64,000 nucleotides of DNA from an uncultured archaeon (GCA_964632315.1 CAZWEM010000007.1:16571-80570), one strand, 5' to 3'. Counted from the first letter of the stretch, positions 28,328 to 60,113 are shown. Notes: generated from the letters alone by a model not told the origin. Translations and numbers: made by a program.

Positions 28328-29634
28328 TCACCCAAATTTTTAATGATTCTTAATTTTTCAGGCTCTAAACCTAATGCCATTAATATAAGCTCATTTATGT
28401 CAAAATATTTTAATTTTGAACTGCTTGATTTAATTCCATCCTGTAAATTCGTGGAACAAAATGGACACGCAGATACTATGGCATCTACTCCGGTATCTTC
28501 AGCTTCTTCTATCCTTAACTCAGCGGTCTTGATGGCCATTTCTGGGAAAGCAGATTTAACTCCCCCACCTGCTCCACAACAATAAGCATATTCCCTTATT
28601 CTTTCCATTTCTTTAAATTTTAATCCGGGAATATTTTTTAAAATATTACGTGGAGGATCATAAATCCCGCCTTTTCCAGTCCTTTTTGGTTTTGGTGGGA
28701 TGTTAATTGAGATGAGGGGGATGATTTGAACTTCATCTCCGTCCCAACTCTCATACCTTTCTGAATTCCTTCCTAAATGGCACGGATCATGATAAGTTAC
28801 AGTAATGGGAATTTGAGTATTGAACTTCAATTTTCCTTCTTCAATTAATTCATTAAAAAATTCCACAGTATGATAAACTTCAAAACTATAACTTCTATAA
28901 AGAGGATAATCAACCTTGAAAGTATCATAACACCCGGCACAGCTAAAAATTACTTTTTCAATACCTTTTGATTCAATAACGTCCAGATTCTTATTTAACA
29001 CCTTAGTGAATGTACTTATATCTCCTGTTCTTAATATCGGACTTCCACAACAAAATTCCTCATCATATAAGATATTAAAAGGAACTCCTGCGTTGTTCAT
29101 TATTCTAGCAGCAGCTATAGCCATTTCCTTTCTTCGATAAGAAGATGTGCATCCAATATAGTAGAGGATATTTGCGTCTGGATTAATCTTAATATCTTCG
29201 GGTAACCAATCAGTTCTTTGTTCATGTGGTTCTCCATATGGATTATTATTAATCTCTACGGATTGGGTGTAAGCTGCTTGGCTCGGCATGGGCCCACATC
29301 CAACTTCAACTAACTTTTCTCTCAATTTCATCATAATTTCTAATGGTTCTAAAGTATTTAGAAACTTGCAAGCGACAGCACAATTTCCACATTCAGTACA
29401 TTTGTAGACAATCTCTCTTAACTCATCAGAAGGTTTAATCTTGCCCATCTCTAATGCTAATGCAAGGATGATCTTTCCACCTCCACTATATGGATGATAA
29501 TTATACAAATCAACTGCTGGGCAAGCAGTGGCATATTTTTGACTTTTTATCTGAACTTGTGGAATCCACTTACAAATTGAACACCTTAAACACATCTTTA
29601 TCATCTTAAGATACTCTTCTTCTTTTAGCACCAT
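28324..29634 (-). CDS. Fe-S oxidoreductase with CCG domains (GlpC/HdrD-like)
   Basis: CLRCSIC, CTECGNC..C, CCGSP, SCAGC, YHDPCHLGR, CCGAGGG, ACPFC. Confidence 0.9.
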   Translation of the reverse strand: MVLKEEEYLKMIKMCLRCSICKWIPQVQIKSQKYATACPAVDLYNYHPYSGGGKIILALALEMGKIKPSDELREIVYKCTECGNCAVACKFLNTLEPLEIMMKLREKLVEVGCGPMPSQAAYTQSVEINNNPYGEPHEQRTDWLPEDIKINPDANILYYIGCTSSYRRKEMAIAAARIMNNAGVPFNILYDEEFCCGSPILRTGDISTFTKVLNKNLDVIESKGIEKVIFSCAGCYDTFKVDYPLYRSYSFEVYHTVEFFNELIEEGKLKFNTQIPITVTYHDPCHLGRNSERYESWDGDEVQIIPLISINIPPKPKRTGKGGIYDPPRNILKNIPGLKFKEMERIREYAYCCGAGGGVKSAFPEMAIKTAELRIEEAEDTGVDAIVSACPFCSTNLQDGIKSSSSKLKYFDINELILMALGLEPEKLRIIKNLGD

Positions 29635-29646
29635 AATTTTACACCA

Positions 29647-32205: not shown

Positions 32206-32691
32206 TCAAATATAACGACTTCTTAAAATTCCAATAACGGACATATTAACTATAGCTATAATGTGCACTAAAATTAAAAGAATCAAAATTTGCATAAAAA
32301 TTGAAGGATTGGTAGCGATTGTTACTGGGATTGAAATTCCCATACTCACCCAACAAAGATAAGATACAATATAGATGTTCCACAAATTTCTTCTAAATCT
32401 TGACATTTTTATTGATTGATCTGTCTTTGTAAGAAGAACTAATGCTGCTCTTCCAATATCAGAAAAAGTATATTTAGATTTTTTTTGAATTAAGAATTAT
32501 CGCATAGTTTTAAGATGATAAGAAAGTGTAGGACTATCTATTTCTAATTTCTTTTGAATTTGTGAGAAGGTAAGGTCACGTTCTCCCAATACTTTTATAA
32601 TATTTCGACGAGTTTGATGTGTTAATAATTTAAAAATTTCATCTTCCTTTGTAATAGGGATTTCTTCTTGGTGAGTTTTATTTTGATTCAT
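32206..32691 (-). pseudogene. wHTH + 2TM regulator interrupted by an in-frame TAA; paralog of 34910-35431
   Basis: Reads ...YHLKTMR*FLIQKKSKYTFSDIGRAALVLLTKTDQSIKMSRFRRN... in one frame. The TAA at 32497-32499 aligns with Glu in the paralog (YHLKSMKELLTQRDSKYTFSDIGRAAL). Confidence 0.85.
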
Positions 32692-34909: not shown

Positions 34910-35431
34910 TTAAGTATAACGACCTCTTAATAATCCAAGTACGATTAAATTTATTGTACAAATCCCATTTATTATGATTTGGATTATTATATTAGAGACT
35001 TGTTTTGGTGAAACGAACCAAAAAGCGAGAGGAGTAAATATTTCTGCCGTTATCCAACAAAATAGAGTTATCAAATATGCATAAAAAAAATTTCTTCTAT
35101 ACCTCGAAATTTTGAAAGAATGATCGGTTTTTGTAAGAAGAACCAATGCCGCTCTTCCAATGTCGGAAAAAGTGTACTTTGAATCTCTTTGAGTTAATAA
35201 TTCTTTCATGCTTTTAAGATGATAGGAGAGGGTTGGACTATCAATTGAACCCAACTCCATCTGAATTTGGCTAAATGTTAAATCTCGTTCTCCTAAAACT
35301 TTTATAATATTTCTCCGAATGGGATGGGTTAACAACTTGAAAATCTCATCTTCTTTGGAACTTTCATCCGTGTTCGGTTTATTTTTTAACATTTGTTTCA
35401 ATATTGTAAGTAATATTTTTTTTGCTTTCAA
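34910..35431 (-). CDS. ArsR-like wHTH regulator with two C-terminal TM helices
   Basis: IFKLLTHPIRRNIIKVL...SPTLSYHLKSM...YTFSDIG followed by two hydrophobic segments. Confidence 0.85.
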   Translation of the reverse strand: MKAKKILLTILKQMLKNKPNTDESSKEDEIFKLLTHPIRRNIIKVLGERDLTFSQIQMELGSIDSPTLSYHLKSMKELLTQRDSKYTFSDIGRAALVLLTKTDHSFKISRYRRNFFYAYLITLFCWITAEIFTPLAFWFVSPKQVSNIIIQIIINGICTINLIVLGLLRGRYT

Positions 35432-43866: not shown

Positions 43867-44292
43867 TTAGATATTCGAAAGTTTTACAGTTATGAAAAAG
43901 AAGTTTACGATGGAACTCATTATATCATAAAATTCTTTTATCTCCAAAGGTTTATTTATATAGCAGTTAGCATGTAAGTCATAAGCTTTAATTAAATCTT
44001 CCTCATTAGTTGAAATCGTTAATATTATTACTGGAATTCGTCTAAATTTTTCATGTTCTTTTATTTCCTTTAAAACTTCAAGCCCTGTCATTTTAGGTAA
44101 ATTAAGGTCTAAAAAGATGAGATCAGGACGAGATTTTTTTTCTAGGAAGTTTAATGCCTCAACTCCATTGTGAACTACGTGAATTTCGTTGACAATCTCA
44201 TTTCTATTTAGTGCTTCTTTTGTAAGACTAATGTCAGCCGGATTATCTTCCACTAACAATATTCTGAACTTCTTATTCTGTTGATCATTCAT
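43867..44292 (-). CDS. Stand-alone response regulator (REC only, Rcp1-like)
   Basis: LLVEDNPAD, LDLNLP, ILTIS, AYDLHANCYINKP. Confidence 0.93.
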   Translation of the reverse strand: MNDQQNKKFRILLVEDNPADISLTKEALNRNEIVNEIHVVHNGVEALNFLEKKSRPDLIFLDLNLPKMTGLEVLKEIKEHEKFRRIPVIILTISTNEEDLIKAYDLHANCYINKPLEIKEFYDIMSSIVNFFFITVKLSNI

Positions 44293-45374
44293 GGATTACG
44301 CTCTCCTCGCTGAGGATTCTTAATTTTCTTAGTTTTAATTGTAAAATAAAAGGTAGAACCTTTTCCAAGTTCTGATTCCACCCATACTTCCCCACCATAT
44401 CTCTGAACGATTTTTTTACATATTGGTAGTCCTATCCCTGTTCCGGGATATTCTTCTTTTGTATGTAGTCGATAAAATATATTATATAGTCGATCGTGAT
44501 ATTTCGGATCTATTCCAATACCATTATCCTTAATTGAAAAAATCCAGTAATTGCTTAATCTTTTCACTCCTATGTGGATTTTTGGAGGGTCTACATTACG
44601 AAATTTAATCGCATTACTTAGAAAGTTTTGAAATAATTGTAAGAATTGTATACGATCGACTTTTAAAGTAGGTAGTGGATCATGAGTAATAACTGCTCCA
44701 CTTTCTTTTATTGCTTCTTGTAAATTAAAAATAACATCATTTAAAATGGGTTCAAGGTCATGCCATTCTATTGGATTTGCTTGGGTTGTGATTCTAGAAT
44801 AGCTTAATAAATCTTTTATGAGAACGTTCATCTTTTTCGCTCCATCTGTAATAAAGTATATATATTCTTTACCATCCTCATCTAATTTATCATGATACTT
44901 TTCCTCGAGAAGTTGAGAAAAACTAATGATCGCTCTTAGAGGTTCCTGTAGATCATGAGATGCCACATAAGCGAATTGTTGAAGATCTTCATTTGATCGC
45001 TTTAAATCTTTAATAATCTCATTTAATTCTAATTCTTTCTTTAAAATTTTCTCAGATAAAAATGCGATTACTACACCAACTATTAGGACTGAAATCTTGA
45101 TTGAAAAGCCGTTTATCGCATCTTCACCAAAAAAAGACACACCTTGAGAAATTTGGACAATCAACAAAAATAATATTAAAAAAATAGGAATAGTAAGCCC
45201 TTTTCTCTTCCACCACAAAGTAGCTAAAATGGTAGGAAAATAGAAAAAATTAACAATATAAAAATTGATTTTAAGTATTACTTCAAAGTAGATAACTAAT
45301 AAGCAAGAGATTACTATTAAAGCTATTATTATCCCAAATTTTATGCATTCCTTTCGATCATTTAAGCTTATCAT
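44289..45374 (-). CDS. Membrane-anchored sensor histidine kinase
   Basis: N-terminal TM helices; H-box FAYVASHDLQEPLR; N-box NFLSNAIKF; DNGIG; GTGIGL; GKGSTFYF. Confidence 0.95.
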   Translation of the reverse strand: MISLNDRKECIKFGIIIALIVISCLLVIYFEVILKINFYIVNFFYFPTILATLWWKRKGLTIPIFLILFLLIVQISQGVSFFGEDAINGFSIKISVLIVGVVIAFLSEKILKKELELNEIIKDLKRSNEDLQQFAYVASHDLQEPLRAIISFSQLLEEKYHDKLDEDGKEYIYFITDGAKKMNVLIKDLLSYSRITTQANPIEWHDLEPILNDVIFNLQEAIKESGAVITHDPLPTLKVDRIQFLQLFQNFLSNAIKFRNVDPPKIHIGVKRLSNYWIFSIKDNGIGIDPKYHDRLYNIFYRLHTKEEYPGTGIGLPICKKIVQRYGGEVWVESELGKGSTFYFTIKTKKIKNPQRGERNP

Positions 45375-45561
45375 TTATAATCAAGCAAGCTACACGTTCT
45401 AAAGCTCCCTATATATGAAAATGAATTTATCTATTTAAATATCGTAGTGATAAATCGTATAATTACAAATTTGATTCATTTTTTTTTTAATTTTCCGAAT
45501 GAAAAATAGGTGAATAACATATTTCATTGATTAACTTCCATCTTACCAATCAAATCATTGT

Positions 45562-45635
45562 TGAAAGAATTTCGAAAAAACTGATTGAATTGATCTCTTG
45601 ATGGACTAATTATATATAAAAATGAATATTATTCA
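45562..45635. promoter_or_regulatory. Promoter of the REC-Lrp gene with 13-bp palindromes
   Basis: TGAAA-GAA-TTTCG 45562-74, TATA-like TATATATAAA 45611-20, TGAAT-ATT-ATTCA 45623-35. Confidence 0.5.
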
Positions 45636-45678
45636 GAATTACTATTATTAATATAAATAAAGGGAGAAGACTCTTACA

Positions 45679-46551
45679 ATGAAAATATTATTAATTGAAG
45701 ATAATGCAGCTGATATTAAACTTATAGAAGAGTTTTTAAAAAAATCCTCCACTTTTCAATACGAACTTCATTCATTTACGCGTCTTTCAGAAGGATTAGA
45801 TTATGTTAATAATAATGAAGTGGATGTTATCTTACTAGATCTGACCCTACCAGATAGTGATAAAGAATCCTCTCTTGATACGATCCTAGAATACACATCT
45901 AAATATCCTGTTATTATTTTAACTGGATTTGATGATAAAGAAATTGCCTTAAATTCTCTTAAAAAAGGAATTCAAGACTATTTAGTAAAGGGAGATTTAA
46001 CTGATACCATCTTAAATCGTTCGATTTTATATGGAATCGAACGCCACAAAATCAAGCCTGAAGGTGCAATCAAAAAAGAAATCGAATTACCTTTAGATAA
46101 AAAGGATAAATTAATTCTAAACATTTTACAAGATAATTACAAAATATCTTATAAAGAAATAAGTAGTAAAGTGCATCTAGCAGCGAGCACAATCCATAAT
46201 CGCGTACAAAATATGATTACTACGGGGATTATTAAAGAAATCGATACAATTGTGGATCCATATAAAGTCGGTTTTAATACCATTACCATTGTGAGTTTAT
46301 CTGTAGATCCCTTAAAAATAGATGAGATTGCCCAAAAACTAAAAATATATGATAACATTCAACTCATTGCCTCTAGTGGAGGAGAATATAACTTAATAAT
46401 AAAAATTATAGTGGAAAATGAGAAAACCCTCTGGAAATTTATTAATGAAAAAATTAAAACAATTTCGGGAATATCAACCCAAATAAATGTTTCAAGCTTA
46501 ATTGAAATTTTTAAAAACACATCAAGAGTAAAATTTAAAGTAGAAAAATAA
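45679..46551 (+). CDS. Response regulator: REC domain fused to an Lrp/AsnC regulator (HTH + RAM)
   Basis: REC: LLIEDN, LLDLTLPD, ILTG, YLVKG. Lrp: LDKKDKLILNILQDNYKISYKEISSKVHLAASTIHNRV...VDPYKVG...SSGGEYNL. Confidence 0.9.
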   Translation: MKILLIEDNAADIKLIEEFLKKSSTFQYELHSFTRLSEGLDYVNNNEVDVILLDLTLPDSDKESSLDTILEYTSKYPVIILTGFDDKEIALNSLKKGIQDYLVKGDLTDTILNRSILYGIERHKIKPEGAIKKEIELPLDKKDKLILNILQDNYKISYKEISSKVHLAASTIHNRVQNMITTGIIKEIDTIVDPYKVGFNTITIVSLSVDPLKIDEIAQKLKIYDNIQLIASSGGEYNLIIKIIVENEKTLWKFINEKIKTISGISTQINVSSLIEIFKNTSRVKFKVEK

Positions 46552-46556
46552 AAGAT

Positions 46557-47888
46557 TTAAGGAAAAATTCCTCTTAATTCAATAGCTCTTGCTAATCTTG
46601 AAACGGCTATTATATATGCAGCAGTTCTTAAAGTTGTATTTTTCTTCAAAGAGAGATCATAAACTTCCGAAAATGTGTTAACCATAATACCTTCTAATTC
46701 TTGGTTTATTCGATCAAGTTTCCAAAAGTAGCTATGAATATCTTGGATATACTCAAAATAACTTACGCAAACTCCCCCAGCATTTGCTAAAATATCAGGT
46801 ACAACAATTATCCCCCTCTCTCTTAATATTTCATCAGCTTCTGGTGTCGTTGGACCGTTTGCTCCTTCTAAAATTATTCCACAATTAATATTGTCAGCGT
46901 TATCGAGGGTTATCTGATTTTCTATTGCAGCTGGGATTAAGACATCACAATCAATATTTAGTAATTTGTCGTTAGGAATAAATTCGTAGTTTTCTTCCCT
47001 ATAGTCTTTTAAAAAGTGATTTTGATCGACCCATTCTGATAATTTTTTGATATCTAAGCCTTTATTATCATATAATCCCCCACTAATATCTGAAATCGCA
47101 ATAATCTTTGCTCCTTTTTCATATAGTATCCTAGCTATTGTTCCTCCAACGTTTCCAAAACCTTGGACTACGATGCTACTACCTTTGAGAGCTAAATTCA
47201 TTTTTTTATATAATGCATCTAATACATAATATAATCCCATTCCCGTTGCACTTTCTCTTCCCACTGATCCTCCTATTTCTATAGGTTTTCCGGTAACCAC
47301 TCCTGGAACAGAACGCCCTTTCTGCATTGAATACACATCCATAATCCATGCCATTATCCTTTTATCAGTTCCCACATCTGGAGCAGGAATATCAATATCA
47401 GGACCAATAATATTAATGATTTCAGCTGTGTATCTTCTTGTCAGTCTTTCAAGCTCTCCTAATGAAAGTTTTCTTGGATCAACACATACTCCTCCTTTAG
47501 CACCCCCTAAAGGGAGGTTTAATAAGCTGTTTTTCCAAGTCATCCATGTTGCAAGTGCCTTTACTTCATCTAAACACACGTTGGGAGAAAACCGAATGCC
47601 TCCCTTTCCTGGACCCCTGACGGTAGAATGCTGGGCTCTATATCCCTCAAATACTTCAAGTTCTCCATTATCCATAACTACAGGAATTGAAACAATCAGA
47701 GAGCGCTCTACTCTTTTTAGATATTTGGTAATATTTTTGTCTAGTCTCATCTCTTTAGCGACAATGTCGATTTGTTGTTTCGCCATCTCAAAGGGATTTC
47801 GAATTACTTTCTGAGGCCTTTTATATTCTTCTGATGGTTCGATCTCATTTGATACTACTATTGCTTTTTTATAAATAATTCTCCCCAC
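46557..47888 (-). CDS. gdhA: Glutamate dehydrogenase (Glu/Leu/Phe/Val family)
   Basis: RGPGKGGIRF, MTWK, GGAKGG, PAPDVGT, VTGKP, QGFGNVG, EGANGPTT, PDILANAGGV. Confidence 0.95.
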   Translation of the reverse strand: MGRIIYKKAIVVSNEIEPSEEYKRPQKVIRNPFEMAKQQIDIVAKEMRLDKNITKYLKRVERSLIVSIPVVMDNGELEVFEGYRAQHSTVRGPGKGGIRFSPNVCLDEVKALATWMTWKNSLLNLPLGGAKGGVCVDPRKLSLGELERLTRRYTAEIINIIGPDIDIPAPDVGTDKRIMAWIMDVYSMQKGRSVPGVVTGKPIEIGGSVGRESATGMGLYYVLDALYKKMNLALKGSSIVVQGFGNVGGTIARILYEKGAKIIAISDISGGLYDNKGLDIKKLSEWVDQNHFLKDYREENYEFIPNDKLLNIDCDVLIPAAIENQITLDNADNINCGIILEGANGPTTPEADEILRERGIIVVPDILANAGGVCVSYFEYIQDIHSYFWKLDRINQELEGIMVNTFSEVYDLSLKKNTTLRTAAYIIAVSRLARAIELRGIFP

Positions 47889-49081: not shown

Positions 49082-50029
49082 TTATTTCAAAATTGCTAAT
49101 TGCTCTAAAGAAATTTGCTTTGAAAAAATAATATCTTCTTTTAAGATCTCTTTAATTGTAATTAAAATAGTAGTATCAATTATACAATAGGGAAAAGTAA
49201 AAACTATTTCTTCTTCAAATAGCCATTGTTCGACATCAATATTCATTACTTCTTTTTCAAACAAATCGTAAATATGAGAGATTCGAATATTTAGGGCTTC
49301 AAATATCTTCTCTGTTATATTTTTAATTATGATTTCAATTTCTTCACATAAGTTGTTAACTTTTATAGTCTTTACTTCAAAGATATTCTTATCTTCGCTT
49401 AATTTAGAAATTGATTCAAAGATATTAATATTCGAAAAATTTTCCTGAGATATTTGTTCTAGATGAGAAACATTCATTCCCATCGATTCTAAAAAAGTTA
49501 TGGCTTTTTGTAATTTAGTACATTTTGCGTCAGGGAAACCTGTAATAGAGTTTAAAAAAATTGAACATACAAAATTGATAAGTTCTAATACTCGTTTTTT
49601 GAGGATTTCTCCTTTAAGAATTATTTGTTGCTTTTTCACATTTTGTACTATATCATATTTATTTATTTCAGATTCCACAATCGTATAAAGTGAATATTTA
49701 TATCGTTTTATAATGTAATTCTCTAATAAACTTAACAAGTTCTCTCCAATTATATGTAATTCTACAGGTAATATTAGACAAATCGCACAACATTCAAACT
49801 GATTTGAGCTTTCTGAAAACAATTCTAATTTTTTAGCGAAGTATACTTTTTTTCCCAATTCTAAAACTAAGGTGCTGTTTTTTTCTTGTTCATCAAAATA
49901 AAGTGCAAGAGTTCCTAACATTCGTGTTCTTTCGTGATCTAATTTAATAGAATCATAAGGGTATATTACAAAAGGCACGTAACCAAATAATCGGTCAAAA
50001 TATAATAATAATACTTCGAACCTACTCAT
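49082..50029 (-). CDS. Hypothetical protein; N-terminus resembles a longin/uDENN-type domain
   Basis: Probable start ATG 50029: MSRFEVLLLYFDRLFGYVPFVIYP resembles the hhhhhFD..xG.....hP opening of longin/uDENN domains. Fold call is tentative. Confidence 0.5.
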   Translation of the reverse strand: MSRFEVLLLYFDRLFGYVPFVIYPYDSIKLDHERTRMLGTLALYFDEQEKNSTLVLELGKKVYFAKKLELFSESSNQFECCAICLILPVELHIIGENLLSLLENYIIKRYKYSLYTIVESEINKYDIVQNVKKQQIILKGEILKKRVLELINFVCSIFLNSITGFPDAKCTKLQKAITFLESMGMNVSHLEQISQENFSNINIFESISKLSEDKNIFEVKTIKVNNLCEEIEIIIKNITEKIFEALNIRISHIYDLFEKEVMNIDVEQWLFEEEIVFTFPYCIIDTTILITIKEILKEDIIFSKQISLEQLAILK

Positions 50030-50078
50030 TTCCGTTATTTGAGTCTTTTCAAATATAAGAATCACCCTATAAATTATT

Positions 50079-51386
50079 TTAATGACTCGCACACGAGACA
50101 CATGGATCAAAAGATCTTATAATTTGTTGAACATCACATTTAACTCCATTAATATCGCCAGTTTTTTGATATAATCTTCGAGCATAATTCGTTATCATTG
50201 TATTTATGAGTGGAATGTTTATTTCTGTTGCTATGAGCAATTTTACTTCCTTTACTATCTTATTCTCATCAATCTTGTAGTGATGGATCAATGTGCCACG
50301 AGGAGCCTCTAAAATTCCAACACCATCTTTTCTTTCAATTTTTTTTAAATTTGAGAGATTCCTTTTTCCCTTTAGTGCAGGATTATCTAAAATTGCTAAA
50401 GCTTGGTTTGCTTCTACAAAAATTTCAATTAATCTGAGAAAGTTCATAAACAAGGTCGATCTTTTCCAGGATTTATCGAAATTTGTGAAATATTTATCAA
50501 CATCCTCAACGTTATAACTTTCAATCAGATTATAACGTGCAAGAGGACCAACTAAAATGCTTGAATCTTTTTCTAAATTAAAATTGATCCCTCGTAGATC
50601 AGGATCTTTATCAAAATATCTTTCATAATTATTAAATTGAAAGTCTACGGGTTTAGATTGATCGGTGAGTAATCTCAATATACCATTGTATCTTCCGTAA
50701 TTGCCATGAAAATGTTGACTGAGAAATGTTGTATTTGGTAAGGTGAATTGTTCTGGAGGCTCAAAATTTGAAAATAGGTTTATAAATTTATCTAACACAT
50801 AATCTATACTTACAATAACTTTTTGGAAGTAGCGTTTTACGGTTGTAAAATCTTTTTTTATTGGAGTATAAATTACTCCTCCTGGAATTGTATTAATTAA
50901 ATGTACCGAACGACCACCAAATATCTTGTCAATTTCGTTCCCAAATTTGACTAGCTCATACATGTATGAGGTTAATTGAGGATCAAAATGGGTTAATTCA
51001 TATGGATTAGGAACATTTTTAAAATGTCCAAAAATATGTAAAAGATCTGGTAATGCTTGAAAGAAATAATGCATTGAATGAGATTTGATTAGTTCGCCTG
51101 TCAATAATAATTTTCTTAGAAGTATCATTTGTTCATCTGGTTCAACATTAAATATGTGTTCAATTGCCTTGCAACTTACGATACTTTGAGAAGCATGGCA
51201 TAGCCCACATATCCTACTTACAATTCGGGGAAGTTCTATTAATCTCTTTCCAATAAGAATTTGTTCAAATCCTCTTAAAGTATTAATTTCGAAATCTACC
51301 GTGGAAATATTATCATCTTGAAGAATTATTTTTACATTTCCATGGCCTTCTATTCTAGTACATAGATCTACGATCTTTAACATCAT
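50079..51386 (-). CDS. mvhA: [NiFe]-hydrogenase large subunit, group 3 (MvhA-like), atypical
   Basis: TRIEGHG, RGFE, RICGLCHASQ, SHSMH, EAPRGTLIHHY, DPCVSCASH followed immediately by stop. Confidence 0.88.
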   Translation of the reverse strand: MMLKIVDLCTRIEGHGNVKIILQDDNISTVDFEINTLRGFEQILIGKRLIELPRIVSRICGLCHASQSIVSCKAIEHIFNVEPDEQMILLRKLLLTGELIKSHSMHYFFQALPDLLHIFGHFKNVPNPYELTHFDPQLTSYMYELVKFGNEIDKIFGGRSVHLINTIPGGVIYTPIKKDFTTVKRYFQKVIVSIDYVLDKFINLFSNFEPPEQFTLPNTTFLSQHFHGNYGRYNGILRLLTDQSKPVDFQFNNYERYFDKDPDLRGINFNLEKDSSILVGPLARYNLIESYNVEDVDKYFTNFDKSWKRSTLFMNFLRLIEIFVEANQALAILDNPALKGKRNLSNLKKIERKDGVGILEAPRGTLIHHYKIDENKIVKEVKLLIATEINIPLINTMITNYARRLYQKTGDINGVKCDVQQIIRSFDPCVSCASH

Positions 51387-51387
51387 T

Positions 51388-52146
51388 TCACCTCTCTAAA
51401 ACTGGTCTTGAAAATCTGTAGAAAATTCCATCATATTTACGCAAAGTTGCAGATAGATTTATGAGGCTCAAAAAATTAATAACATTTGAAGTATAATCCT
51501 TAGAAATGGGCCCCATACATCCCTCACAAGGCATTCCTTGATTAATACATTTGTGCTCGCATCCTTCTCGTGTAATGGGACCTAAACATAAAATTCCCCT
51601 TTTTAAAAAGCAGATCCCATTTGTTTCAAAATCCGAAATCTCTTCAGGATTAGGTTCAAATCGAGAAATTTCAATTTCTGTGTTTAGAGTTATGTCCGCT
51701 TTTAATGGGCAATTTGCACATAAATTTTTGTTTGATAATTCGATTTCTTTATTTTCGATTATATGTAGTAAAATGTTACCTAACATTTTAGAAGGAGGAG
51801 GACAACCGGGAATAATTCCATCAATTTCTATGTATTTAGAAATAGGTTCTGCATTTTTAACTTTAGAAAGACTCAAGATACCACCAAAAGTAGCACAAGA
51901 TCCTAAAGAAAATACTTTTTTAGCATAATATCTTATAGTTTTAACCAGGTCAATTTGCTCTTTTTCAGAGATGCATCCTTCTATGAGAGCAATATCACAA
52001 TCCTTTATTTCTATTTCATCATTAATAAACGGAAAGATAACGTCTCGGGTTCTCTCGAGAAACTGGGGAAAGATATCTAATGCCATTAACGTTGATATAC
52101 ATCCACTACAAGATGTTAATGAATAAATGAGAATTTTAGGCTTCAA
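51388..52146 (-). CDS. mvhG: [NiFe]-hydrogenase small subunit (MvhG-like)
   Basis: SCSGC, GSCATFGG, PGCPP, CANC, CFL..G.LCLGPITREGC...C...CEGC.GP. TTG start at 52146 after GAGGTGG, overlapping the upstream stop. Confidence 0.88.
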   Translation of the reverse strand: MKPKILIYSLTSCSGCISTLMALDIFPQFLERTRDVIFPFINDEIEIKDCDIALIEGCISEKEQIDLVKTIRYYAKKVFSLGSCATFGGILSLSKVKNAEPISKYIEIDGIIPGCPPPSKMLGNILLHIIENKEIELSNKNLCANCPLKADITLNTEIEISRFEPNPEEISDFETNGICFLKRGILCLGPITREGCEHKCINQGMPCEGCMGPISKDYTSNVINFLSLINLSATLRKYDGIFYRFSRPVLER

Positions 52147-54697
52147 TTTCTCCCACCTCTTCCAATTCTTTGTAAAATTTTTGAATGATTTCAGAAAACT
52201 TACTTCCTTCCACAGCATTTACATGTTTCAATATGACTCGGTGGGCGAATTTTGGACCAAGAATACTCTTTAATAAGTGAACTTTCTTTCTTACGTTCTC
52301 AATACCATCAATGTATCTGCAAGAGTTTTTTCGGCATCCAATGATCAAAATTCCATCAAACCCTAATTCAAAAGATTTTATAATAAAGCTTGAATCGACC
52401 CTTCCGGTACATGGTACTTGAATTATGAAGATATTAGGATAATATGTTATCTTCTTCAATCCAGCATCATCAGCTGCAGCATAACCACAAGATCGACAAC
52501 AAAATGCGATAATTTTAGGCGAATTTTTAAATTTGGAAAATATTTCTATACTTTTTAATATTTTTTCAGAGCTGTCTATGTTCATGCTCAAAGCATTAGT
52601 AGGACAGACGCTTACACAAGTACCACATCCCTTACACTTGAATTTATCAATGTTTAATTTATCAACTTCAAAAGTTATAGCATTATAAGGACATACTTTT
52701 AAGCATAGTCCACAGAGACCACATCTTTCATAATTTATTTCAATTCCTCCAAATTCAGCTAATAAATAATCATTAGAAAGTAAAGAAATTACTTTTAACG
52801 CAACTTGGTTTGCTGATATAATAACCTCCTTATAACTTAATGGCCCAAAAATCGAGCCTGCCCCGTAGACTCCTGAAGCAAGTGTTTCTTCGCTCATAAA
52901 TCCAAAATCATTTAATGTAAAATCCATTTGTTTACGAAGAACTTTTAAATCTTTATTGGGAATTAAATTAGGATTCAGAATTATTAAATCAGAAGGATAT
53001 TCTTTATCATCAGCAACGACAACATTTTGGTTATATGTGTTTTTAATTTCTAACTTTTCAGCGTAATGAATCCTATCATCAAAAATACTAAATCTATATG
53101 AGGGAGTTTTCACCTTATTTTGAATTTGATAAAACACATTTATGTTTATTTCTGGATTCTTTTGGCGAATTTCTTCCATGTATTTTAATACTAAGACGTT
53201 AGCTAAATCTAATTGTGAGTTGCTCTCAGTTGCATTCTGAATTATGGAGATATCATTCGGTACTGCTTTATCTGAAAGACGAATGATTTTTCCTTCTGTT
53301 ATTCCATCTGAAGATAATATTCTTTCAAATTCAGCTGAAGTTATTATATCATTCATTGGATTATGGGAGAAATTATCAAATTTATCAGGAAGGTCAGTAC
53401 CAATAGCAACCACCTTAGTACCTGCTTTAATTCGTATTTCTTCTGGTTTTTGAGATAGATCAATTGCTTTGTTTGGACATGCCCGTTCGCATATTCCGCA
53501 ATTAAGACAGTTCTTTATGTCTTCTTGATCAATTATGGGAGCATATGGATAACAATGAATAAATGGTAAGTATATTATTTTTCGCTCCTCCAAATTAAAC
53601 TCATATTGATTTGGTTTTTGAACACTACATAAATCGATACATTGCTTACAACCAGTACATTTGGTTTCATCTACAAACCTTGGATTTTTTCTTAAATCAA
53701 TGGTAAAATTACCAACCTCTCCAGAGATATTCATAACTTCTGTATTAGTAAAAATTTTGATATTAGATTCTTTTACAAGTTCAGAAATGAATTCTGAAAT
53801 AAAACATATCGAACAATCTCCCATTTCATAAATTTTATGCCATCTTGCTACTTTTCCTCCAAGTGTTGCCGATTTTTCAATTAAATACACTTTTATTCCC
53901 GCCCTTGCTAGATTAAGAGCAACAGTCATCCCAGCAATACCTCCTCCAAGAACTGCGCAACTCCGTTCAACTTCTACCTTTTTAACCCTAATTGCTTTTT
54001 GAAGTATTGCTCTCTCGACTGCAGCTTCTATTAATAATTTAGCTTTTTCTAGGGTTAAAGCAGGATCTATTATTTCGTTTAAATTATTATGAACCCACGC
54101 ACATTGTTCTCTAATATTCGCAAATTCAATATAAGTATGATCAACTGTATTTTCAAAAATATGCTCAAAGAGATGTTGATGAGTCTTGGGAGAACAAGCA
54201 GCAATAACAATCTTATTTAAGTAGTTATCTTTAACCCAATTTTTAATTTGATCAAAATTTTTCTGTTGACATAAATTTTGAAAACGTTTAACTGAAACCA
54301 CGTTTCTTAAACGGGTAATGTAATTCTCAAGTGCGGAAATATTGATAACACTAGAAATTTCCTCATTACAATTACAAATTATTACGCCTACTCTACTGAT
54401 CTCACTTCCTTTGGAGTGAAAATAATCATCTATGTCCTCACCTGAGAGAATTCGTTTATTAAGATTCATAATAGTCATAATCCTTTTGCCATCTTCGGTG
54501 AGAAAATAGGATTTATTATCCTTTCCAATAAGAGAACCAAGTTTCTTAAGGTGAAAATTAAGTTGACCAGTCGTATCTAACCCAAGGCGTTCCATTAACT
54601 CTGTGTAAGGAATATAACCTTCTTTTTCCAAAAGGAGTAAAATTTTTCTTCGAAAAGGGTGGGATAAAATTGAATAAACATCCATTTCTTTTAACAT
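52136..54697 (-). CDS. Fusion protein: winged-helix DNA-binding domain + HdrA-like flavo-FeS protein + MvhD
   Basis: N-term LSHPFRRKILLLL...TGQLNFHLKKL...YFLTEDG. HdrA motifs VGVIICNC, AACSP, NIREQCAWVH, GGGIAG, DCSIC and two ferredoxin modules. MvhD motifs AFCCRSCGYAAAD, CTGRVD, GC....CRY. Confidence 0.9.
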   Translation of the reverse strand: MLKEMDVYSILSHPFRRKILLLLEKEGYIPYTELMERLGLDTTGQLNFHLKKLGSLIGKDNKSYFLTEDGKRIMTIMNLNKRILSGEDIDDYFHSKGSEISRVGVIICNCNEEISSVINISALENYITRLRNVVSVKRFQNLCQQKNFDQIKNWVKDNYLNKIVIAACSPKTHQHLFEHIFENTVDHTYIEFANIREQCAWVHNNLNEIIDPALTLEKAKLLIEAAVERAILQKAIRVKKVEVERSCAVLGGGIAGMTVALNLARAGIKVYLIEKSATLGGKVARWHKIYEMGDCSICFISEFISELVKESNIKIFTNTEVMNISGEVGNFTIDLRKNPRFVDETKCTGCKQCIDLCSVQKPNQYEFNLEERKIIYLPFIHCYPYAPIIDQEDIKNCLNCGICERACPNKAIDLSQKPEEIRIKAGTKVVAIGTDLPDKFDNFSHNPMNDIITSAEFERILSSDGITEGKIIRLSDKAVPNDISIIQNATESNSQLDLANVLVLKYMEEIRQKNPEININVFYQIQNKVKTPSYRFSIFDDRIHYAEKLEIKNTYNQNVVVADDKEYPSDLIILNPNLIPNKDLKVLRKQMDFTLNDFGFMSEETLASGVYGAGSIFGPLSYKEVIISANQVALKVISLLSNDYLLAEFGGIEINYERCGLCGLCLKVCPYNAITFEVDKLNIDKFKCKGCGTCVSVCPTNALSMNIDSSEKILKSIEIFSKFKNSPKIIAFCCRSCGYAAADDAGLKKITYYPNIFIIQVPCTGRVDSSFIIKSFELGFDGILIIGCRKNSCRYIDGIENVRKKVHLLKSILGPKFAHRVILKHVNAVEGSKFSEIIQKFYKELEEVGEIEA

Positions 54698-54741
54698 CCC
54701 TCTGACTTTTTATGATAAATAAATTGATAAATTTTTTAATA

Positions 54742-55019
54742 TGATAATTTTTTTTATCAACATGACAAATGATGTGATCAAGATATATAAATCTATGTTG
54801 TAAATCGATCATATAATGTTGCATTCCAAAAATAGCGATCCTCAATTTCAATAATATTGAGTATTTTTCTATAAAAAATCCGGTAATTAATACCAAAAAA
54901 CTATAAAAGTAGGGGTTGTTACAGCAAAATAGGTTCAAATCTTAATTGACAACACTTTTAGTTAAGCATTTTTTTTGATAAGATTTGTTGTCAAATTTAG
55001 CATTAATTTTGTTGTCAAA
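54742..55019. promoter_or_regulatory. Divergent promoter with TGATAA-N6-TTRTCA palindromes and TGTTGTCAA repeats
   Basis: TGATAA-tttttt-TTATCA 54742-59 and TGATAA-gatttg-TTGTCA 54976-93. TTGACAACA 54946-54. TTTGTTGTCAAA at 54984 and 55008. Confidence 0.5.
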
Positions 55020-55100
55020 CTCTTTAAATTTGGAATAAATGGTTTTTCAATTAGAAAACTGTATTCAACTAATTTCCAACGAAAAAAAGGTGGTAAAAAA

Positions 55101-55721
55101 ATGGAAGTATTAGAATTGAACGGTCCCAAGGATGTAAAAATTATTGTATACATGGCAAAGTCAGAAAAGTCAGATATTCAGAAGGGATTCGATAGTAGAG
55201 TCCTTTCTTTTATCAAGGAAAAAGGAGTAAAGTTTGTAACCATTGATTTTCAAATTGACATTAAATCATTCAAAAATACAGACTTAGGAAAAGTATTAGA
55301 AAAGTCAGGAATTCCATTTTATCAAGTTGATATTCCTGAATATGCTATGGGATATATTTATGAGGAAATAGTGGAGAAGGAAGAATTAATGAATGAGTTA
55401 TGCGATGAATATGAATCAATGGAGAATAAGGATAGTTATAAAGGAGAAAGCTTGAAAAATTGGATTGACCTGCTTCATGAAGAAATCCAGCAGAAAGAAA
55501 ATTATATTAGTCTAAAATTAAGACCGCAGTGGATTGTTAAAAAAATGTTGGATCTATCTAAAACTCATAGAGCAAATCGAGTAGTATTCCTTCATTATGT
55601 CCAAACGGACATTTGTGAAGATATTTGCCCACAAGTCACACAACAATTAAGAGAAGTGGGCGTTAAGGTAATTAATTATAATGTAAAAAAACATTTAAGA
55701 GAAATATTAGCAAAATCTTAA
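55101..55721 (+). CDS. Hypothetical protein, paralog of the N-terminal domain of the next gene
   Basis: ATG 55101 follows AGGTGG. IPFYQVDIPEYA...W...L.EE..QKE......R..W..K.L aligns with the N-terminus of the downstream protein. Confidence 0.75.
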   Translation: MEVLELNGPKDVKIIVYMAKSEKSDIQKGFDSRVLSFIKEKGVKFVTIDFQIDIKSFKNTDLGKVLEKSGIPFYQVDIPEYAMGYIYEEIVEKEELMNELCDEYESMENKDSYKGESLKNWIDLLHEEIQQKENYISLKLRPQWIVKKMLDLSKTHRANRVVFLHYVQTDICEDICPQVTQQLREVGVKVINYNVKKHLREILAKS

Positions 55722-55737
55722 AAAGGTGAAAATAAAA

Positions 55738-57432
55738 ATGTCTGAAACCTTAGAATTAAAAGCAATAAAGGACAAAAACCTAAAATTGGTAATGGTAGAA
55801 AGCGAATTTCCTATAGATTGGTTTTTTAATAAGGAAAAAAATGATGATTCATTACTTTTGAATTTACATTTTGTCTCTAAACAATATCTACACGTCATTG
55901 AAGGTTTGATTGATCAGTATAAACCCAAGTTTATTTTGGAAGAAAAAGGTAATCGAGACGAAGCTTTTACTGAGGATGATCCTTTAAAAGACCTCTTTAA
56001 AAGTAGAAATATTCCTTATGAAATGGTCGATATTTCTGAACAAGCAGAAGATTATTTGCGAGCATCTTTAGATGATCATAAAGCATTAATTAAACAGTTA
56101 ACTGGAAAGATTGATCAAATGATAAAAGTGAACCATGGAGCACCCCCCATTAATGATGAGACATTCTCTCAATTAATCATGTGGAGGGAACATTTACAAG
56201 AAGAATATGACCAGAAAGAAGATGAGGTAAGATATAAAGTTCGGGAAGCGTGGATGATGATGAAGGTATTAAAACAAGCCAAAAGTTTTACGGATAAAAA
56301 GCTTTCAGGCCTCTTCATTTGCGATGAGCGCCATTTTGAGGGATTAGAAAATCTAGCAACAAATTTAAATGTCTTGACGGAGCAAATAAAGATTAAAAAA
56401 GAGATTGCAATAGAACAACCAATGCTTTTAAACACCGATGGAAGCATTTCTACTGCTAATGAAAGTCCAAGCGCTGTAGGAAAATCAATGTGGGAATTGT
56501 CTGCCATAAAGATAAAAAAAGCAGATACTTCTGATAAGATATGTTATTTCTTTGATACTGATGAGATGGCTTCTCCATTTGACATTAACATGGCATATGA
56601 TGCTGGGTTTGATGTGGTAGTACCTGTACCTAGTATTAATGCTGATAAAGTACCAAAATTAGTTCAAGACGCAATCTTCTCTCGTAAACCAAATGCTCCC
56701 ACAACCTTCTTTATAGGAGGATCAAATGTCCTTGAAGGAGAAAAAATAGCAAAAAAGGTAATAAAATCATTGGTTCCTCCTTTTGAATGTCCTGTAATCA
56801 TTGATCCTCGTGGTTCTCATACCACTGCATCTGCTGTTGTAGCCATGACCATAGATATTGCAAGAAAAGAGCATGGAATAAAGGATGTTAAAGGAAAAAA
56901 AGTGATTATCTTTGGGGCAGGCCCCGTTGGTAGGATTGCTGCTATACTTGGAGCTAAGTTAAAGTGTGACACTTATCTTATCGAAACTTGGGATAAAGGA
57001 TCTAAGAAAGCAATTGAAAAGCTAGCAGAGGAACTCACTAAAGAAGCTGGAGAAAACGCAACGAAGGTCAAGGGTATATTTGCACCAACAATAGAAGAAA
57101 GAGTTGAGATTAGCAAAGATGCAAGTTTCATATGGTCCTTAGCAGCTGCGGGTGTAGAAGTTTTACCTGTTCACGCTATGCAGAAACTCTCAGGAAAGAA
57201 GATAGTCGTGGATATTAATCTGGTCCCTCCATATGGAATTGAAGGAATCAAACCAAAACACAAGAATGATGAGATTTATCCTGGAATTTTCGGAATAGGA
57301 GCTCTGGCTTTAGGAAGACTGAAATCAGAATCAGAAGGCCAAATTTTAAAAGAAGCAGCTCAAACTAAGGGTAAAAGGATTTTTGATTATAATTATGCAT
57401 TTGAAAAGGCAAATGAACTCTTAGCTAAATAA
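55738..57432 (+). CDS. mtdB: Fusion: unknown N-terminal domain + NAD(P)-dependent methylene-H4MPT dehydrogenase (MtdA/MtdB family)
   Basis: ATG 55738 follows AGGTGA. C-terminal half has SPFDINMAYDAG, VQDAIFSR, FIGG, DPRGSHTTASA, FGAGPVG, AAAGV, DINLVPPYGIEG, IGALALG.LK. Confidence 0.8.
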   Translation: MSETLELKAIKDKNLKLVMVESEFPIDWFFNKEKNDDSLLLNLHFVSKQYLHVIEGLIDQYKPKFILEEKGNRDEAFTEDDPLKDLFKSRNIPYEMVDISEQAEDYLRASLDDHKALIKQLTGKIDQMIKVNHGAPPINDETFSQLIMWREHLQEEYDQKEDEVRYKVREAWMMMKVLKQAKSFTDKKLSGLFICDERHFEGLENLATNLNVLTEQIKIKKEIAIEQPMLLNTDGSISTANESPSAVGKSMWELSAIKIKKADTSDKICYFFDTDEMASPFDINMAYDAGFDVVVPVPSINADKVPKLVQDAIFSRKPNAPTTFFIGGSNVLEGEKIAKKVIKSLVPPFECPVIIDPRGSHTTASAVVAMTIDIARKEHGIKDVKGKKVIIFGAGPVGRIAAILGAKLKCDTYLIETWDKGSKKAIEKLAEELTKEAGENATKVKGIFAPTIEERVEISKDASFIWSLAAAGVEVLPVHAMQKLSGKKIVVDINLVPPYGIEGIKPKHKNDEIYPGIFGIGALALGRLKSESEGQILKEAAQTKGKRIFDYNYAFEKANELLAK

Positions 57433-57488: not shown

Positions 57489-59708
57489 GTGGATAGGAAT
57501 GTAAATTTTAAAAATGATCCATCAGAATTGAGAGTTAAGGATGCATTTAAAGAAGACGCGGGAAAGGGAATTGTAAGAATAGATACGTCCATCATGCAGG
57601 AATTGAATTTAAAAGCTGGTGATGTCATAGAGATTGTACACCCCCATGTTAATAAAAAAACTGTAGCCTTGGTGAGTCCTGGAAAGGAGGAGGAAAAGGA
57701 AAAAAATATTATCCGCATTGATCCTTCTATAAGAAGAAATTTGGGGTCTTCTATTGATGATATAATCAAAATACGCAAAATTGAAGCAAGTATTGCTAAT
57801 AGTGTAATATTTACTGGAGTTGATGACTCTTTGATACTGAGGAATACTCAACAACTCGCAAGAAGATTAGAAAATAGAGTTGTAACAAAGGGAGATATTT
57901 TAAGTTTTTATACCTATGGTAAAAGAATTGATTTGGTAGTTCTTGATTTCACGCCTAAATCAGAAGCTGTTCGAATTTTTTTAACTACAAAATTTGAACT
58001 TACTGATCATGTTCAAGTTCAAAAAGAATATAAAAAAATAGAAACAGGACATATAACATATGAAGATATTGGCGGATTAGATGAGACAATACAGAAAATT
58101 CGGGAGATGATTGAAGTCCCTATTAGGCATCCTGAATTATTCAAAAGAATAGGAGTTTCAGCTCCTAAAGGAGTATTATTATATGGTCCTCCAGGAACGG
58201 GAAAAACTTTATTAGCTAGAGCTGTAGCTTATGAAACAGACGCTCATTTCTTTACTATTAGTGGCCCAGAAATAATGAGTAAATTTTACGGGCAGAGTGA
58301 AGAAAACCTAAGGAAAATATTTGATGAAGCGAAGGAAAAAGCACCAGCTATCATTTTTCTTGATGAAATGGATTCGATCGCTCCTAAACGTGGTGAAACT
58401 GGAGAAGTAGAAAGAAGAGTGGTTGCTCAACTGCTAGCTTTAATGGATGGCTTAGAAAGTAGAGGGGAAATCATTGTAATGGGTGCAACAAATCGCGTGA
58501 ATGATATTGATGAAGCTTTAAGGAGGCCTGGTAGATTTGATAGAGAAATTGAAATAATAGTGCCCGATTCAAAGGGTAGATATGAAGTATTGCAAATTCA
58601 TACAAGAGGCATGCCTTTAGATAATGACGTCGATTTAAGATTTATTGCTGAAAAAACACATGGTTTTGTAGGAGCAGATATCGAACTTTTAGCAAAAGAA
58701 GTTGCGATTTTAGCTATTCGAGACTTTTTGCCTAATGTTGATTTAGAAAAAGCAATTCCTCCAGACGTTCTCAGTAATATTAAGATAAAGATGAAACATT
58801 TTCTTCAAGCCCTTACCACGATTCAGCCTTCTGCTTTAAGGGAAGTTTTAATATCTACTCCAACTGAAACGTGGGAGGATATTGGGGGATTAGAAGATGC
58901 TATACTTCAATTAAAGGAAGTAGTAGAATGGCCATTGAAATATCCAAAGTTGTATAAACGGATGGATTCTGAACCTCCTAACGGAATATTATTATATGGT
59001 CCACCCGGAACCGGTAAGACCTTGATTGCAAGAGCTTTAGCACACGAGAGTGAGGCAAACTTTATTTCCATAAAAGGTCCAGAAATTTTATCAAAATGGG
59101 TGGGAGAAAGTGAAAAAGCAATTAGAGAAACTTTTAGAAAAGCGAGATCTACCACTCCGTGTATAATATTTTTTGATGAAATTGATGCGATAGCTAGCGC
59201 TAGAGGGCGATATGCACAGAACCAAACGATAGAAAATGTAGTTTCACAATTACTCACAGAAATGGATGGTTTAGAGGATGTAAAAGGCATAATATTATTA
59301 GCTGCAACTAATAGACCAGACATGTTAGACACCGCTCTTTTACGTTCAGGAAGATTTGGAAGGCATATAGAGATTTCTTTACCTGACTTGTCTGCAAGGA
59401 AAGATATTTTAAACATTCATTTTAAAGATAAACCTATATCAAATGAGGTAGACTTGAATCAAGTTGCTGAGATATTGAGTGGATTTTCCGGGGCAGACAT
59501 TAAAGCATTATGCCAAGAAGCTATATTACTGACTATTAGAAAGGCTATAAAAGGTGATATTGATGATGAAGATGAGCATTCTTTAGCTAACGTCCTTATT
59601 ACCGAAAATGAGATAAACGAAGCATTTCATAAAGTTGGAAAATCTATTGCCAGAGCTAAAAAAACATATGAAAAAGAAAAACTGAACTCTGAAAGGATAT
59701 ATTTATAG
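57489..59708 (+). CDS. cdc48: CDC48/VCP family AAA+ ATPase
   Basis: Double-psi N domain ([10 protein letters not shown]), two GPPGTGKT Walker A motifs, [17 protein letters not shown] and LRSGRF. C-terminal IYL (HbYX). Confidence 0.96.
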
Positions 59709-59894
59709 ATCCTTTCCATTTTTTTTATTTTGTAAAGAAAATACAGGTTTTCATTTATGAAAAAAAAAAATCTCAAAACAAAAATTTGATTAAAAAAATT
59801 ATCAAAAACTCCAAAATTTCTCTTATCAAATTTTTTATATTGGAATTGGATTATTTATCATTTAGTAATAACAAAATAAAAAAGTGATTGAAAA

Positions 59895-60113
59895 ATGACT
59901 ACGACTATTCAAGTTTTTAAGAAAGATTTTCATAATGATCAAGTTGCTAATAGGAGCTTTTTTGAAGAAATGAAAAAAGGATGGGAGTGGTTCGAAAATG
60001 ATCAAGAACTTCAGAGATTACAAGAATTTAAAAAGGCTTATGAAGAAGAAGTTGATAAAGATTCATTTAATGCCCAAATGTTGGCAACTTATATAGATTT
60101 ACTCGAAAAATAA
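59895..60113 (+). CDS. Small hypothetical protein
   Basis: 72-aa helical acidic ORF preceded by AAGTGA and followed by a T-rich tract. Confidence 0.6.
   Translation: MTTTIQVFKKDFHNDQVANRSFFEEMKKGWEWFENDQELQRLQEFKKAYEEEVDKDSFNAQMLATYIDLLEK

Follow-up and report, generated by a model that had tools for sequence, protein, structure and literature searches.

A conserved Asgard fusion of a winged helix to HdrA and MvhD, its [NiFe] hydrogenase partners and its candidate role in redox-responsive gene regulation

Hydrogen is the currency of Asgard syntrophies and is central to models of eukaryogenesis, and we know of no mechanism by which Asgard archaea sense it. The H2 sensors described to date either feed a kinase cascade, as in HoxBC–HoxJ–HoxA, or are putative PAS-linked [FeFe] enzymes. 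Proteins that combine catalysis with control of transcription, known as trigger enzymes, offer a second point of comparison: PutA of enteric bacteria is both a flavoenzyme and the repressor of the divergent put genes, and BirA and NadR are other examples. A third is the methanogen Mvh–Hdr complex, whose mobile arm comprises the HdrA N- and C-terminal domains together with MvhAGD and alternates between two states in the course of turnover (PMC13580544). Here we analyse a stretch of 64,000 nucleotides (nt) from an uncultured Asgard archaeon (GCA_964632315.1, CAZWEM010000007.1:16571-80570; hereafter the window), in which a protein joining a winged helix-turn-helix (wHTH) domain to HdrA and MvhD is encoded together with the hydrogenase subunits MvhG and MvhA, opposite an operon that contains an MtdB-like gene. 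A previous reading of the same DNA (the original prediction) had taken this locus for a metabolic module repurposed as an H2 or redox sensor. We found that the fusion belongs to a conserved family whose operon is preceded by a predicted palindromic operator and, judging from these sequences, the complex probably relays hydrogen or redox state directly to gene expression.

The fusion, its operon and their conservation

The source assembly (4.45 Mb in 119 contigs) is Asgard, with homologues named Promethearchaeota and Loki-, Thor-, Hod-, Hermod- and Odinarchaeota. Four genes occupy positions 49082-54697 on the minus strand and encode the fusion, MvhG, MvhA and an uncharacterised protein (Table 1). 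All genes of the layout given in the original prediction were found in their places, as was the tight packing of the first three: MvhG overlaps the fusion by 11 nt, an overlap shared by its orthologues, which are likewise 252 amino acids (aa) long, and MvhA abuts MvhG. The open reading frame (ORF) of the fusion spans 52136-54697, with the start placed at the ATG at 54685, used in all homologues, because these are 849 aa long.

Pfam detected DUF7347/wHTH at residues 6-75 of the fusion (E 2e-11, above the cut-off), with PF24038 scoring 44 bits against a cut-off of 27.6, and FlpD/MvhD at residues 729-849 (E 1e-34). Among PDB structures, residues 99-719 matched HdrA of the methanogen Mvh–Hdr complex (8rvu_a, E 3e-105) and residues 726-851 matched MvhD chains (E 1e-24). 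The domain order is therefore wHTH, HdrA N-terminal [4Fe-4S] domain, Rossmann domain for flavin adenine dinucleotide (FAD), inserted 2x[4Fe-4S] ferredoxin domain, C-terminal 2x[4Fe-4S] domain and MvhD [2Fe-2S] domain. In the orthologue alignment, GGGxAG and the cofactor cysteines were invariant, including the cofactor sites of the inserted ferredoxin domain. The exception is the FAD-proximal cluster HA4 (CxGSR...CSxxCC), all four cysteines of which are replaced in the window, bearing out the claim that its HdrA part has lost a cluster motif. Both Ni-Fe ligand motifs are present in MvhA (L1, RICGLC; L2, DPCVSCASH), which also retains the catalytic Glu (RIEGHG) and Arg (APRG).

We evaluated the conservation of this arrangement in a set of 36 related loci (557 kb in total, with fusions at 35-100% identity) and in a survey of 400 Asgard genomes, counting as full-length any match that ran from residue ~5 to ~848. 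The fusion, MvhG and MvhA were contiguous in all 36 loci, down to 35% identity, and the survey revealed well over 100 full-length matches that include the wHTH, distributed across eight families and extending down to 36% identity. The length of the fusion is shared by more than 120 protein clusters at 63-100% identity, nearly all of which carry PF24038. HdrA–MvhD paralogues that lack the wHTH match the fusion only from residue ~100 onward, and a library of 1.84 billion representative proteins yielded only ~7 clusters (50% identity) that combine a wHTH with the HdrA N-domain. The fusion is a conserved Asgard family with over a hundred relatives. An assembly artefact is rejected by the same contiguous arrangement in 36 loci and the more than 100 matches, and with it fails the worry, raised in the original prediction, that the fusion might be unique to this assembly.

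Two single-contig genomes of a sister family (6.0 and 4.4 Mb) contain no full-length fusion orthologue, which makes the expression data of cultured Asgard archaea, where the [NiFe] hydrogenase is reported to be highly abundant (PMC11216029), not transferable to this locus. Two other genomes carry two wHTH–HdrA–MvhD copies each (G304 on contigs C88 and C257, and G223 on contigs C61 and C115). The subtypes with MtdB or FrhB partners, which are described below, may be paralogues instead of variants of one locus. Our literature search found no paper on a DNA-binding HdrA or a regulator-fused hydrogenase, in agreement with the original prediction, which knew of no description of this architecture; HdrA–MvhD fusions in Asgard archaea have been listed, with the wHTH unmentioned (PMC11237513).

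The winged helix and its predicted operator

The wHTH has the fold expected of a dimeric DNA-binding domain, as had been claimed for it. An AlphaFold2 (AF2) model of residues 1-100 (pLDDT 87) has the topology a1-a2-b-a3-a4-b-b-a5, and its top Foldseek matches were YodB, CadC, NolR, SarZ, MarR and Sso10a, all of them dimeric repressors or DNA binders (TM 0.6-0.78 for YodB, CadC and NolR). Prediction of the homodimer from two copies of the same residues gave a score of 0.39 against a mark of 0.42. Eight positions (R12, T39, G40, N43, H45, K48, K55 and Y60) were invariant or nearly so in orthologues down to 35% overall identity, and the exposed polar residues of the recognition helix were invariant among fusion orthologues. 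Within the family, the wHTH is the most conserved domain of the fusion, at 72-88% identity versus 50-80% for the other domains. It looks like a working DNA-binding domain of the ArsR/MarR type.

In aligned upstream regions we recognised by eye an inverted repeat, TGAYMA-N6-TKRTCA, which was then used for strict scans and for scans allowing <=1 mismatch; TATA boxes and transcription starts were also assigned by eye. The window contains three strict sites versus 0.22 expected, a number reached in none of 100 shuffles, and all three are located between the fusion and the divergent gene, in the shared promoter where the original prediction had noted palindromes. The whole 4.45 Mb genome contains 12 strict sites, and seven of the nine others fall inside ORFs. 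The predicted operator O1 starts 3 nt past a TATA-like box (TTTATATA, 54784-54791), and orthologous promoters have a site at the same position after a TATA-like box. O1 and O2 are separated by a 3-nt gap, with their centres 21 bp apart (two helical turns), and together cover the expected transcription start; tandem sites 21 bp apart are also found in five related loci. A site just past the TATA box or over the transcription start is the classical position of an archaeal repressor. The predicted operator O3 precedes the start codon of the divergent operon (ATG, 55101) by ~115 nt and is followed, ~40 nt downstream, by a TATA-like sequence, CTTTAAATTT (TTTAAAT-like), and a distal site at -220 to -260 recurs among orthologous loci. 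Archaeal sites upstream of the TATA box are more often activating. The probable fourth operator, 5 kb away, precedes a 72 aa ORF; in four related loci, the homologue of this ORF likewise has a site, at -111 to -122.

Across the 36 loci, 51 of 108 sites (<=1 mismatch) fall within 300 bp before the fusion, although these loci are kin and the raw counts overstate their independence. Five loci have an FrhB-like gene leading the operon, and there two perfect sites precede that gene instead, with the same geometry. Distant genomes contain the motif just as seldom, again with placement before the fusion operon: one of only two sites in the 3.8 Mb of G122 is ~90 nt before the fusion, one of six in G118 is at -88, one of 14 in G107 is 45 nt upstream, and two of 12 in G189 precede the FrhB–fusion operon. 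Most weight falls on the observation that the motif precedes the fusion operon in four Asgard families whose promoters are otherwise unalignable. As a negative control we used ten wHTH-less HdrA–MvhD paralogue loci (110 kb), in which there was no upstream site, no MvhGA and no MtdB gene. The operator is linked to the wHTH-bearing fusions. A regulon scan of the genome at <=1 mismatch returned 347 matches, mostly chance, and revealed nothing convincing beyond the sites given here. A GC-richer palindrome, TGACCA-N6-TGGTCA, recurs in G107 (in full in 3 of 14 pattern matches, and as one such half-site in eight more) and occurs once in the window's genome, in an intergenic position (contig C42:10597); it is probably the site of a different regulator.

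These patterns bear on whether the wHTH is itself the binder. It could instead be a protein-contact or assembly module, with the palindrome belonging to a separate transcription factor. Some wHTH domains do have non-DNA roles, for example in MCM, cullins and DsrD, and the genome holds at least six other DUF7347 proteins that share the LN[FY]HL core. We nevertheless consider this improbable: the palindrome accompanies the fusion in four families and is missing from the wHTH-less loci, the polar residues of the recognition helix stay invariant down to 35% overall identity, no regulator gene other than the fusion is conserved in the related loci, and the recognition helices of the other DUF7347 proteins differ from that of the fusion.

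A 638 aa ORF on contig C1 of the same genome (160232-162148) combines a DUF7347 wHTH with an apparent ATP-cone and a long uncharacterised C-terminal region, and the window itself contains two paralogous small DUF7347 wHTH genes ~3 kb apart (32443-32643 and 35147-35350), one of which is interrupted by an in-frame TAA and may be a pseudogene. Positions 43867-47888, which follow the hydrogenase operon at a distance of a few kb, encode a REC–AsnC/Lrp regulator, a histidine kinase, a receiver and gdhA, an arrangement that is syntenic in several loci of the same family. The kinase and REC–AsnC pair is situated 2-5 kb from the operon and is unlinked in distant families.

Partner genes, sensor-like traits and proposed mechanism

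The divergent operon encodes an Asgard-specific protein and a fusion of an Asgard-specific domain to an MtdB-like dehydrogenase acting on methylene-tetrahydromethanopterin (methylene-H4MPT). In families f19 and f31, the orthologue of the MtdB fusion occupies the fourth place within the hydrogenase operon; orthologues are divergent from this operon in f21, f4 and the window, and are split into separate genes in part of the window's own family (f1). A merely coincidental neighbour was rejected on the basis of this distribution, and the link between the hydrogenase and H4MPT-type one-carbon (C1) genes is ancient. The tie between the two operons that the original prediction had drawn is upheld, with a predicted operator on both sides and MtdB in or beside the operon across families. 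In about nine close loci, the neighbour is an FrhB-like gene or a split HdrA-like pair instead.

No HdrBC gene is present in any of the 36 fusion operons. The window, too, has no HdrBC partner gene, as had been stated, but it does contain one CCG-domain protein (28324-29634), which we rejected as an HdrB since it is GlcF-like and flanked by FAD-oxidase genes. It is the only CCG gene in the window and belongs to a GlcD/GlcF/GlcE-like cluster (FAD oxidase, Fer4+CCG, FAD oxidase; 26762-31116) that is unrelated to the hydrogenase operon. The genome as a whole encodes ~25 CCG-domain proteins and a second [NiFe] hydrogenase operon, of the Vhu type, on contig C11 (36581-40805; L009:6581-10805). Its small subunit is 409 aa long, and its large subunit, of 435 aa, terminates ahead of DPCxxCxxH; HdrC and HdrB come next, with HypE adjacent and no HdrA or MvhD gene within the operon. 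The truncated reading frame suggests a split VhuA/VhuU selenoprotein, with a 284-nt gap for VhuU. A metabolic Hdr-linked hydrogenase is thus present elsewhere in the genome. The genome also has one HycI-type protease gene, on contig C8, and twelve MvhD/FlpD-like genes, four of which contain an in-frame TGA, consistent with the selenoprotein MvhD/HdrA reported for Asgard archaea.

With so many CCG proteins available, and an HdrCB pair beside a hydrogenase that has no HdrA or MvhD genes of its own, the fusion might be part of an ordinary MvhAGD–HdrABC bifurcating enzyme that borrows HdrBC from C11 or from another CCG protein and carries the wHTH as a neutral add-on. We judge this very unlikely. 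HA4 passes the high-potential electron from FAD to HdrBC (PMC13580544), and it is precisely this cluster that has lost all four cysteines; moreover, the wHTH is under the strongest constraint of all domains, and the operons themselves supply no HdrBC.

The large subunit has the two sensor-type features ascribed to it in the original prediction, though both are derived. Its CGLCHASQ aligns with CGICQVAH of structural MvhA, so that Gln replaces the L1 His, and the L2 His is its last residue (DPCVSCASH-stop), with PDB MvhA chains running ~25 residues further. A Gln for the L1-region His and a missing C-terminal extension are characteristic of regulatory hydrogenases (PMC5665086, PMC8159394). To follow these traits, we built a fusion tree with the wHTH-less paralogues as outgroup, each of which contains HA4, and read it together with trait tables over the loci. 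The wHTH fusions form one clade. Its basal families f19 and f31, with MtdB in the operon, keep the His, an MvhA tail of 7-13 aa and HA4; the HA4 cysteines are also kept in f28, as in the paralogues. Family f21 keeps the His and the tail with the HA4 cysteines mostly gone, and f4 and f6 have the Gln and a short tail. In the crown clade, which includes the window, there is no tail and no HA4, and the Gln is found in all loci but one, where a truncated ORF left the motif unread. Read along the tree, the wHTH and operator arose first, on an ordinary-looking enzyme, with the sensor hallmarks accumulating later and stepwise toward the crown clade.

Rates of change within the operon follow the order wHTH, rest of the fusion, MvhG and MvhA, from most to least conserved. 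Compared with its family, the window's MvhA is 44-58% identical and the Vhu-type large subunit of C11 80-90% identical in the same 40-genome sample (49-50% versus 89-90% in three same-genus genomes), a gap that may partly reflect paralogy or transfer, because the window's fusion sits on a long branch and is not nearest to those of its own genus.

From these observations we propose the following mechanism. MvhA, MvhG and the wHTH–HdrA–MvhD fusion would form a three-subunit complex whose wHTH binds TGAYMA-N6-TKRTCA. Binding at O1 and O2, beside the TATA-like box, would shut the fusion operon off, and O3 would let the complex act on the divergent operon of the Asgard-specific protein and the MtdB-type fusion, with the probable fourth site extending its reach to the small gene 5 kb away. 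Electrons from H2 split at the Ni-Fe site would pass along the iron–sulfur (FeS) chain of MvhG to the [2Fe-2S] cluster of MvhD and on to FAD. As the wHTH is attached to the HdrA N-terminal domain, the redox or conformational state could determine the way in which an HdrA dimer presents its two wHTHs, and through this the affinity for DNA. The loss of the HA4 ligands means that the route to HdrBC is gone in the window's clade, where at most ferredoxin-linked turnover would be left. Given that this route is gone and both regulatory hallmarks have been gained, signalling is probably the main job. A mainly regulatory role is favoured by four features of this clade: HA4 is lost, the two hallmarks are present, the catalytic subunit evolves fast and the wHTH evolves very slowly.

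Several points weigh against this reading. FAD, the four other [4Fe-4S] sites per HdrA, the FAD-adjacent Cys pair, the MvhD cluster and the catalytic Glu and Arg are all conserved, as would be expected of an enzyme no less than of a sensor. In deep relatives, the wHTH and operator occur alongside a hydrogenase that looks canonical and an HdrA that contains HA4, and therefore the wHTH alone does not imply a sensor. In about one quarter of close relatives, the operon includes a gene for an FrhB-type redox subunit, a pattern suggestive of a modular enzyme, and other DUF7347 proteins of the genome could in principle bind the palindromes.

The complex might accordingly be a trigger enzyme: a working oxidoreductase, moving electrons between H2 and ferredoxin in either direction or supplying H2-linked reductant to MtdB or FrhB, in which the wHTH provides only negative autoregulation and co-ordination of partner genes, as in PutA or BirA. 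The Gln and the losses of the tail and HA4 would then be catalytic or partner adaptations. The invariance of every remaining cofactor site speaks for this, particularly in the inserted ferredoxin domain, the exit to ferredoxin in Mvh–Hdr, as do the co-operonic MtdB fusion in f19 and f31, the FrhB gene in part of f1, the retention of the His, tail and HA4 in the basal lineages, and a set of operators that is local to the complex's own genes and those of its partners. It does not readily account for convergence on both hallmarks of regulatory hydrogenases (PMC5665086, PMC8159394), or for a catalytic subunit that evolves fastest beside a wHTH that evolves slowest. Without HA4 and HdrBC, furthermore, there is no obvious high-potential acceptor and the known bifurcation cannot run, and the second, highly conserved Vhu–HdrCB hydrogenase is available for metabolism. 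We regard the trigger enzyme as possible but on balance unlikely.

Our preferred reading, a self-regulating and redox-responsive complex of hydrogenase and flavoprotein regulator with signalling as its main job, has in our estimate about an even chance of being correct. A more specific version is tentative and falls somewhat short of that: a one-component H2 sensor in which electrons from a [NiFe] hydrogenase reach a flavin/FeS transcription factor with no kinase or second messenger, derived from a self-regulating Asgard Mvh–HdrA enzyme that lost the HdrBC branch step by step and gained the hallmarks by convergence, and controlling H4MPT-linked C1 metabolism. With respect to the repurposing proposed in the original prediction, the fusion family, the wHTH fold, the operator, the C1 link and the hallmarks support it, and a dedicated sensor as opposed to a self-regulating enzyme is not established.

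The 315 aa protein, counted as part of the operon in the original prediction, is present here, but it follows MvhA in only 6 of the 36 related loci, at 29-35% identity. It had no Pfam match, even at E 10, and its AF2 model is poor (pLDDT 60), with an N-terminal order of b-b-a-b-b-b-a at low confidence. The Asgard-specific domain of ~200 aa occurs twice in the divergent operon, once free (55101-55721) and once fused to MtdB (55726-56550), and always accompanies an MtdB-like gene. The free 206 aa protein matches residues 80-187 of the MtdB fusion (BLASTP E 1e-7) and has orthologues at the same position in at least 12 loci, and its Atlas clusters are all Promethearchaeota 'hypothetical'. Pfam searches to E 10 with this protein and with the N-terminal half of the MtdB fusion found no family, nor did an Atlas search with the 206 aa protein; a weak TraB/GumN match at 0.81 was the sole lead. 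Right after the MtdB fusion, on the same strand, a Cdc48-type AAA ATPase is encoded at 57489-59708, likewise in two related loci, and may be co-transcribed with the regulated operon.

Table 1 Coordinates of the genes, the wHTH domain and the predicted operators in the window.
Feature	Position	Strand	Details
Uncharacterised 315 aa protein, accessory gene	49082..50029	-	Likeliest start Met28, 50 nt after MvhA
MvhA, group-3c-like [NiFe] large subunit	50079..51386	-	PDB matches 7t2r_D and 5odc_F, E ~1e-52
MvhG, [NiFe] small subunit, 252 aa	51388..52146	-	TTG start (at 52146); Oxidored_q6, E 1.5e-17
wHTH–HdrA–MvhD fusion, 849 aa	52136..54685	-	Pfam, PDB matches, homologue clusters
wHTH domain, fusion residues 1-85	54431..54685	-	DUF7347; recognition helix TTGQLNFHLKKL
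Operator O2 (predicted)	54742..54759		TGATAAAAAAAATTATCA, perfect palindrome; strict match
Operator O1 (predicted)	54763..54780		TGATCACATCATTTGTCA, read towards the fusion; strict match
Operator O3 (predicted)	54976..54993		TGATAAGATTTGTTGTCA; strict match
Asgard-specific protein, 206 aa, first gene of divergent operon	55101..55721	+	Paralogous to N-terminal half of next gene
Asgard-specific domain fused to MtdB-like methylene-H4MPT dehydrogenase, 568 aa	55726..57432	+	Mpt_N at residues 284-361, E 2e-24; Rossmann domain
Fourth operator (probable)	59787..59804		TGATTAAAAAAATTATCA, one mismatch; centre ~100 nt before 72 aa ORF (59895-60113)

Significance and comparison with known systems

If the proposed mechanism is true, no known route from H2 to a promoter would be shorter than the one through a hydrogenase docked on a flavoprotein that binds DNA, and the complex would represent a new class of trigger enzyme. 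Members of the family form a natural series from enzyme-like to sensor-like, by which the evolution of a sensor from an enzyme becomes testable, and for bench work they offer a defined predicted operator, a small domain predicted to bind DNA and a handful of target genes. The locus also ties a group 3c hydrogenase to an MtdB-type dehydrogenase of the archaeal Wood–Ljungdahl pathway, a connection not recognised before.

The closest relatives in composition are the MvhAGD–HdrABC complexes of methanogens (PDB 5ODC, 8RVU and 9SW2-6), with homologous MvhA, MvhG, MvhD and HdrA, and the FAD, the N-terminal cluster, both ferredoxin domains and the FAD-adjacent Cys pair are kept in the window. In contrast to those complexes, HdrA and MvhD are here fused behind an N-terminal wHTH, HA4 is lost, the operon has no HdrBC, the large subunit has the L1 Gln and no C-terminal extension, and the operon has its own predicted operator. 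The HdrA–MvhD fusion as such is shared with HdrA2–MvhD (HdrA2B2C2 of Methanosarcina) and with the wHTH-less Asgard paralogues, at 33-35% identity from residue 100 onward. Unlike the window's fusion, the Asgard paralogues keep CxGSRD...CSRxCC, and they lack the wHTH, an adjacent MvhGA, the MtdB gene and the palindrome.

As a regulator, the fusion is by analogy most like PutA, with an N-terminal DNA-binding domain on a flavoenzyme, predicted operators in its own divergent control region and the redox state of FAD as a plausible switch. It differs from PutA in having a wHTH where PutA has a ribbon-helix-helix, in its chemistry and in a predicted input from a docked [NiFe] hydrogenase, and no membrane-association step is known for it. 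As a possible H2 sensor, it resembles HoxBC/HupUV (group 2b) in the Gln that replaces a His near the active site, in the absence of the C-terminal extension (PMC5665086, PMC8159394) and in the presence of a metabolic hydrogenase in the same genome. Whereas HoxBC/HupUV work with the HoxJ/HupT kinase and HoxA/HupR, the hydrogenase described here is related to group 3c and not 2b, its operon encodes no kinase or response regulator, and the candidate output domain is fused directly to the electron-accepting subunit, and the DNA-binding domain is separated from the hydrogenase by a flavin and five more FeS clusters.

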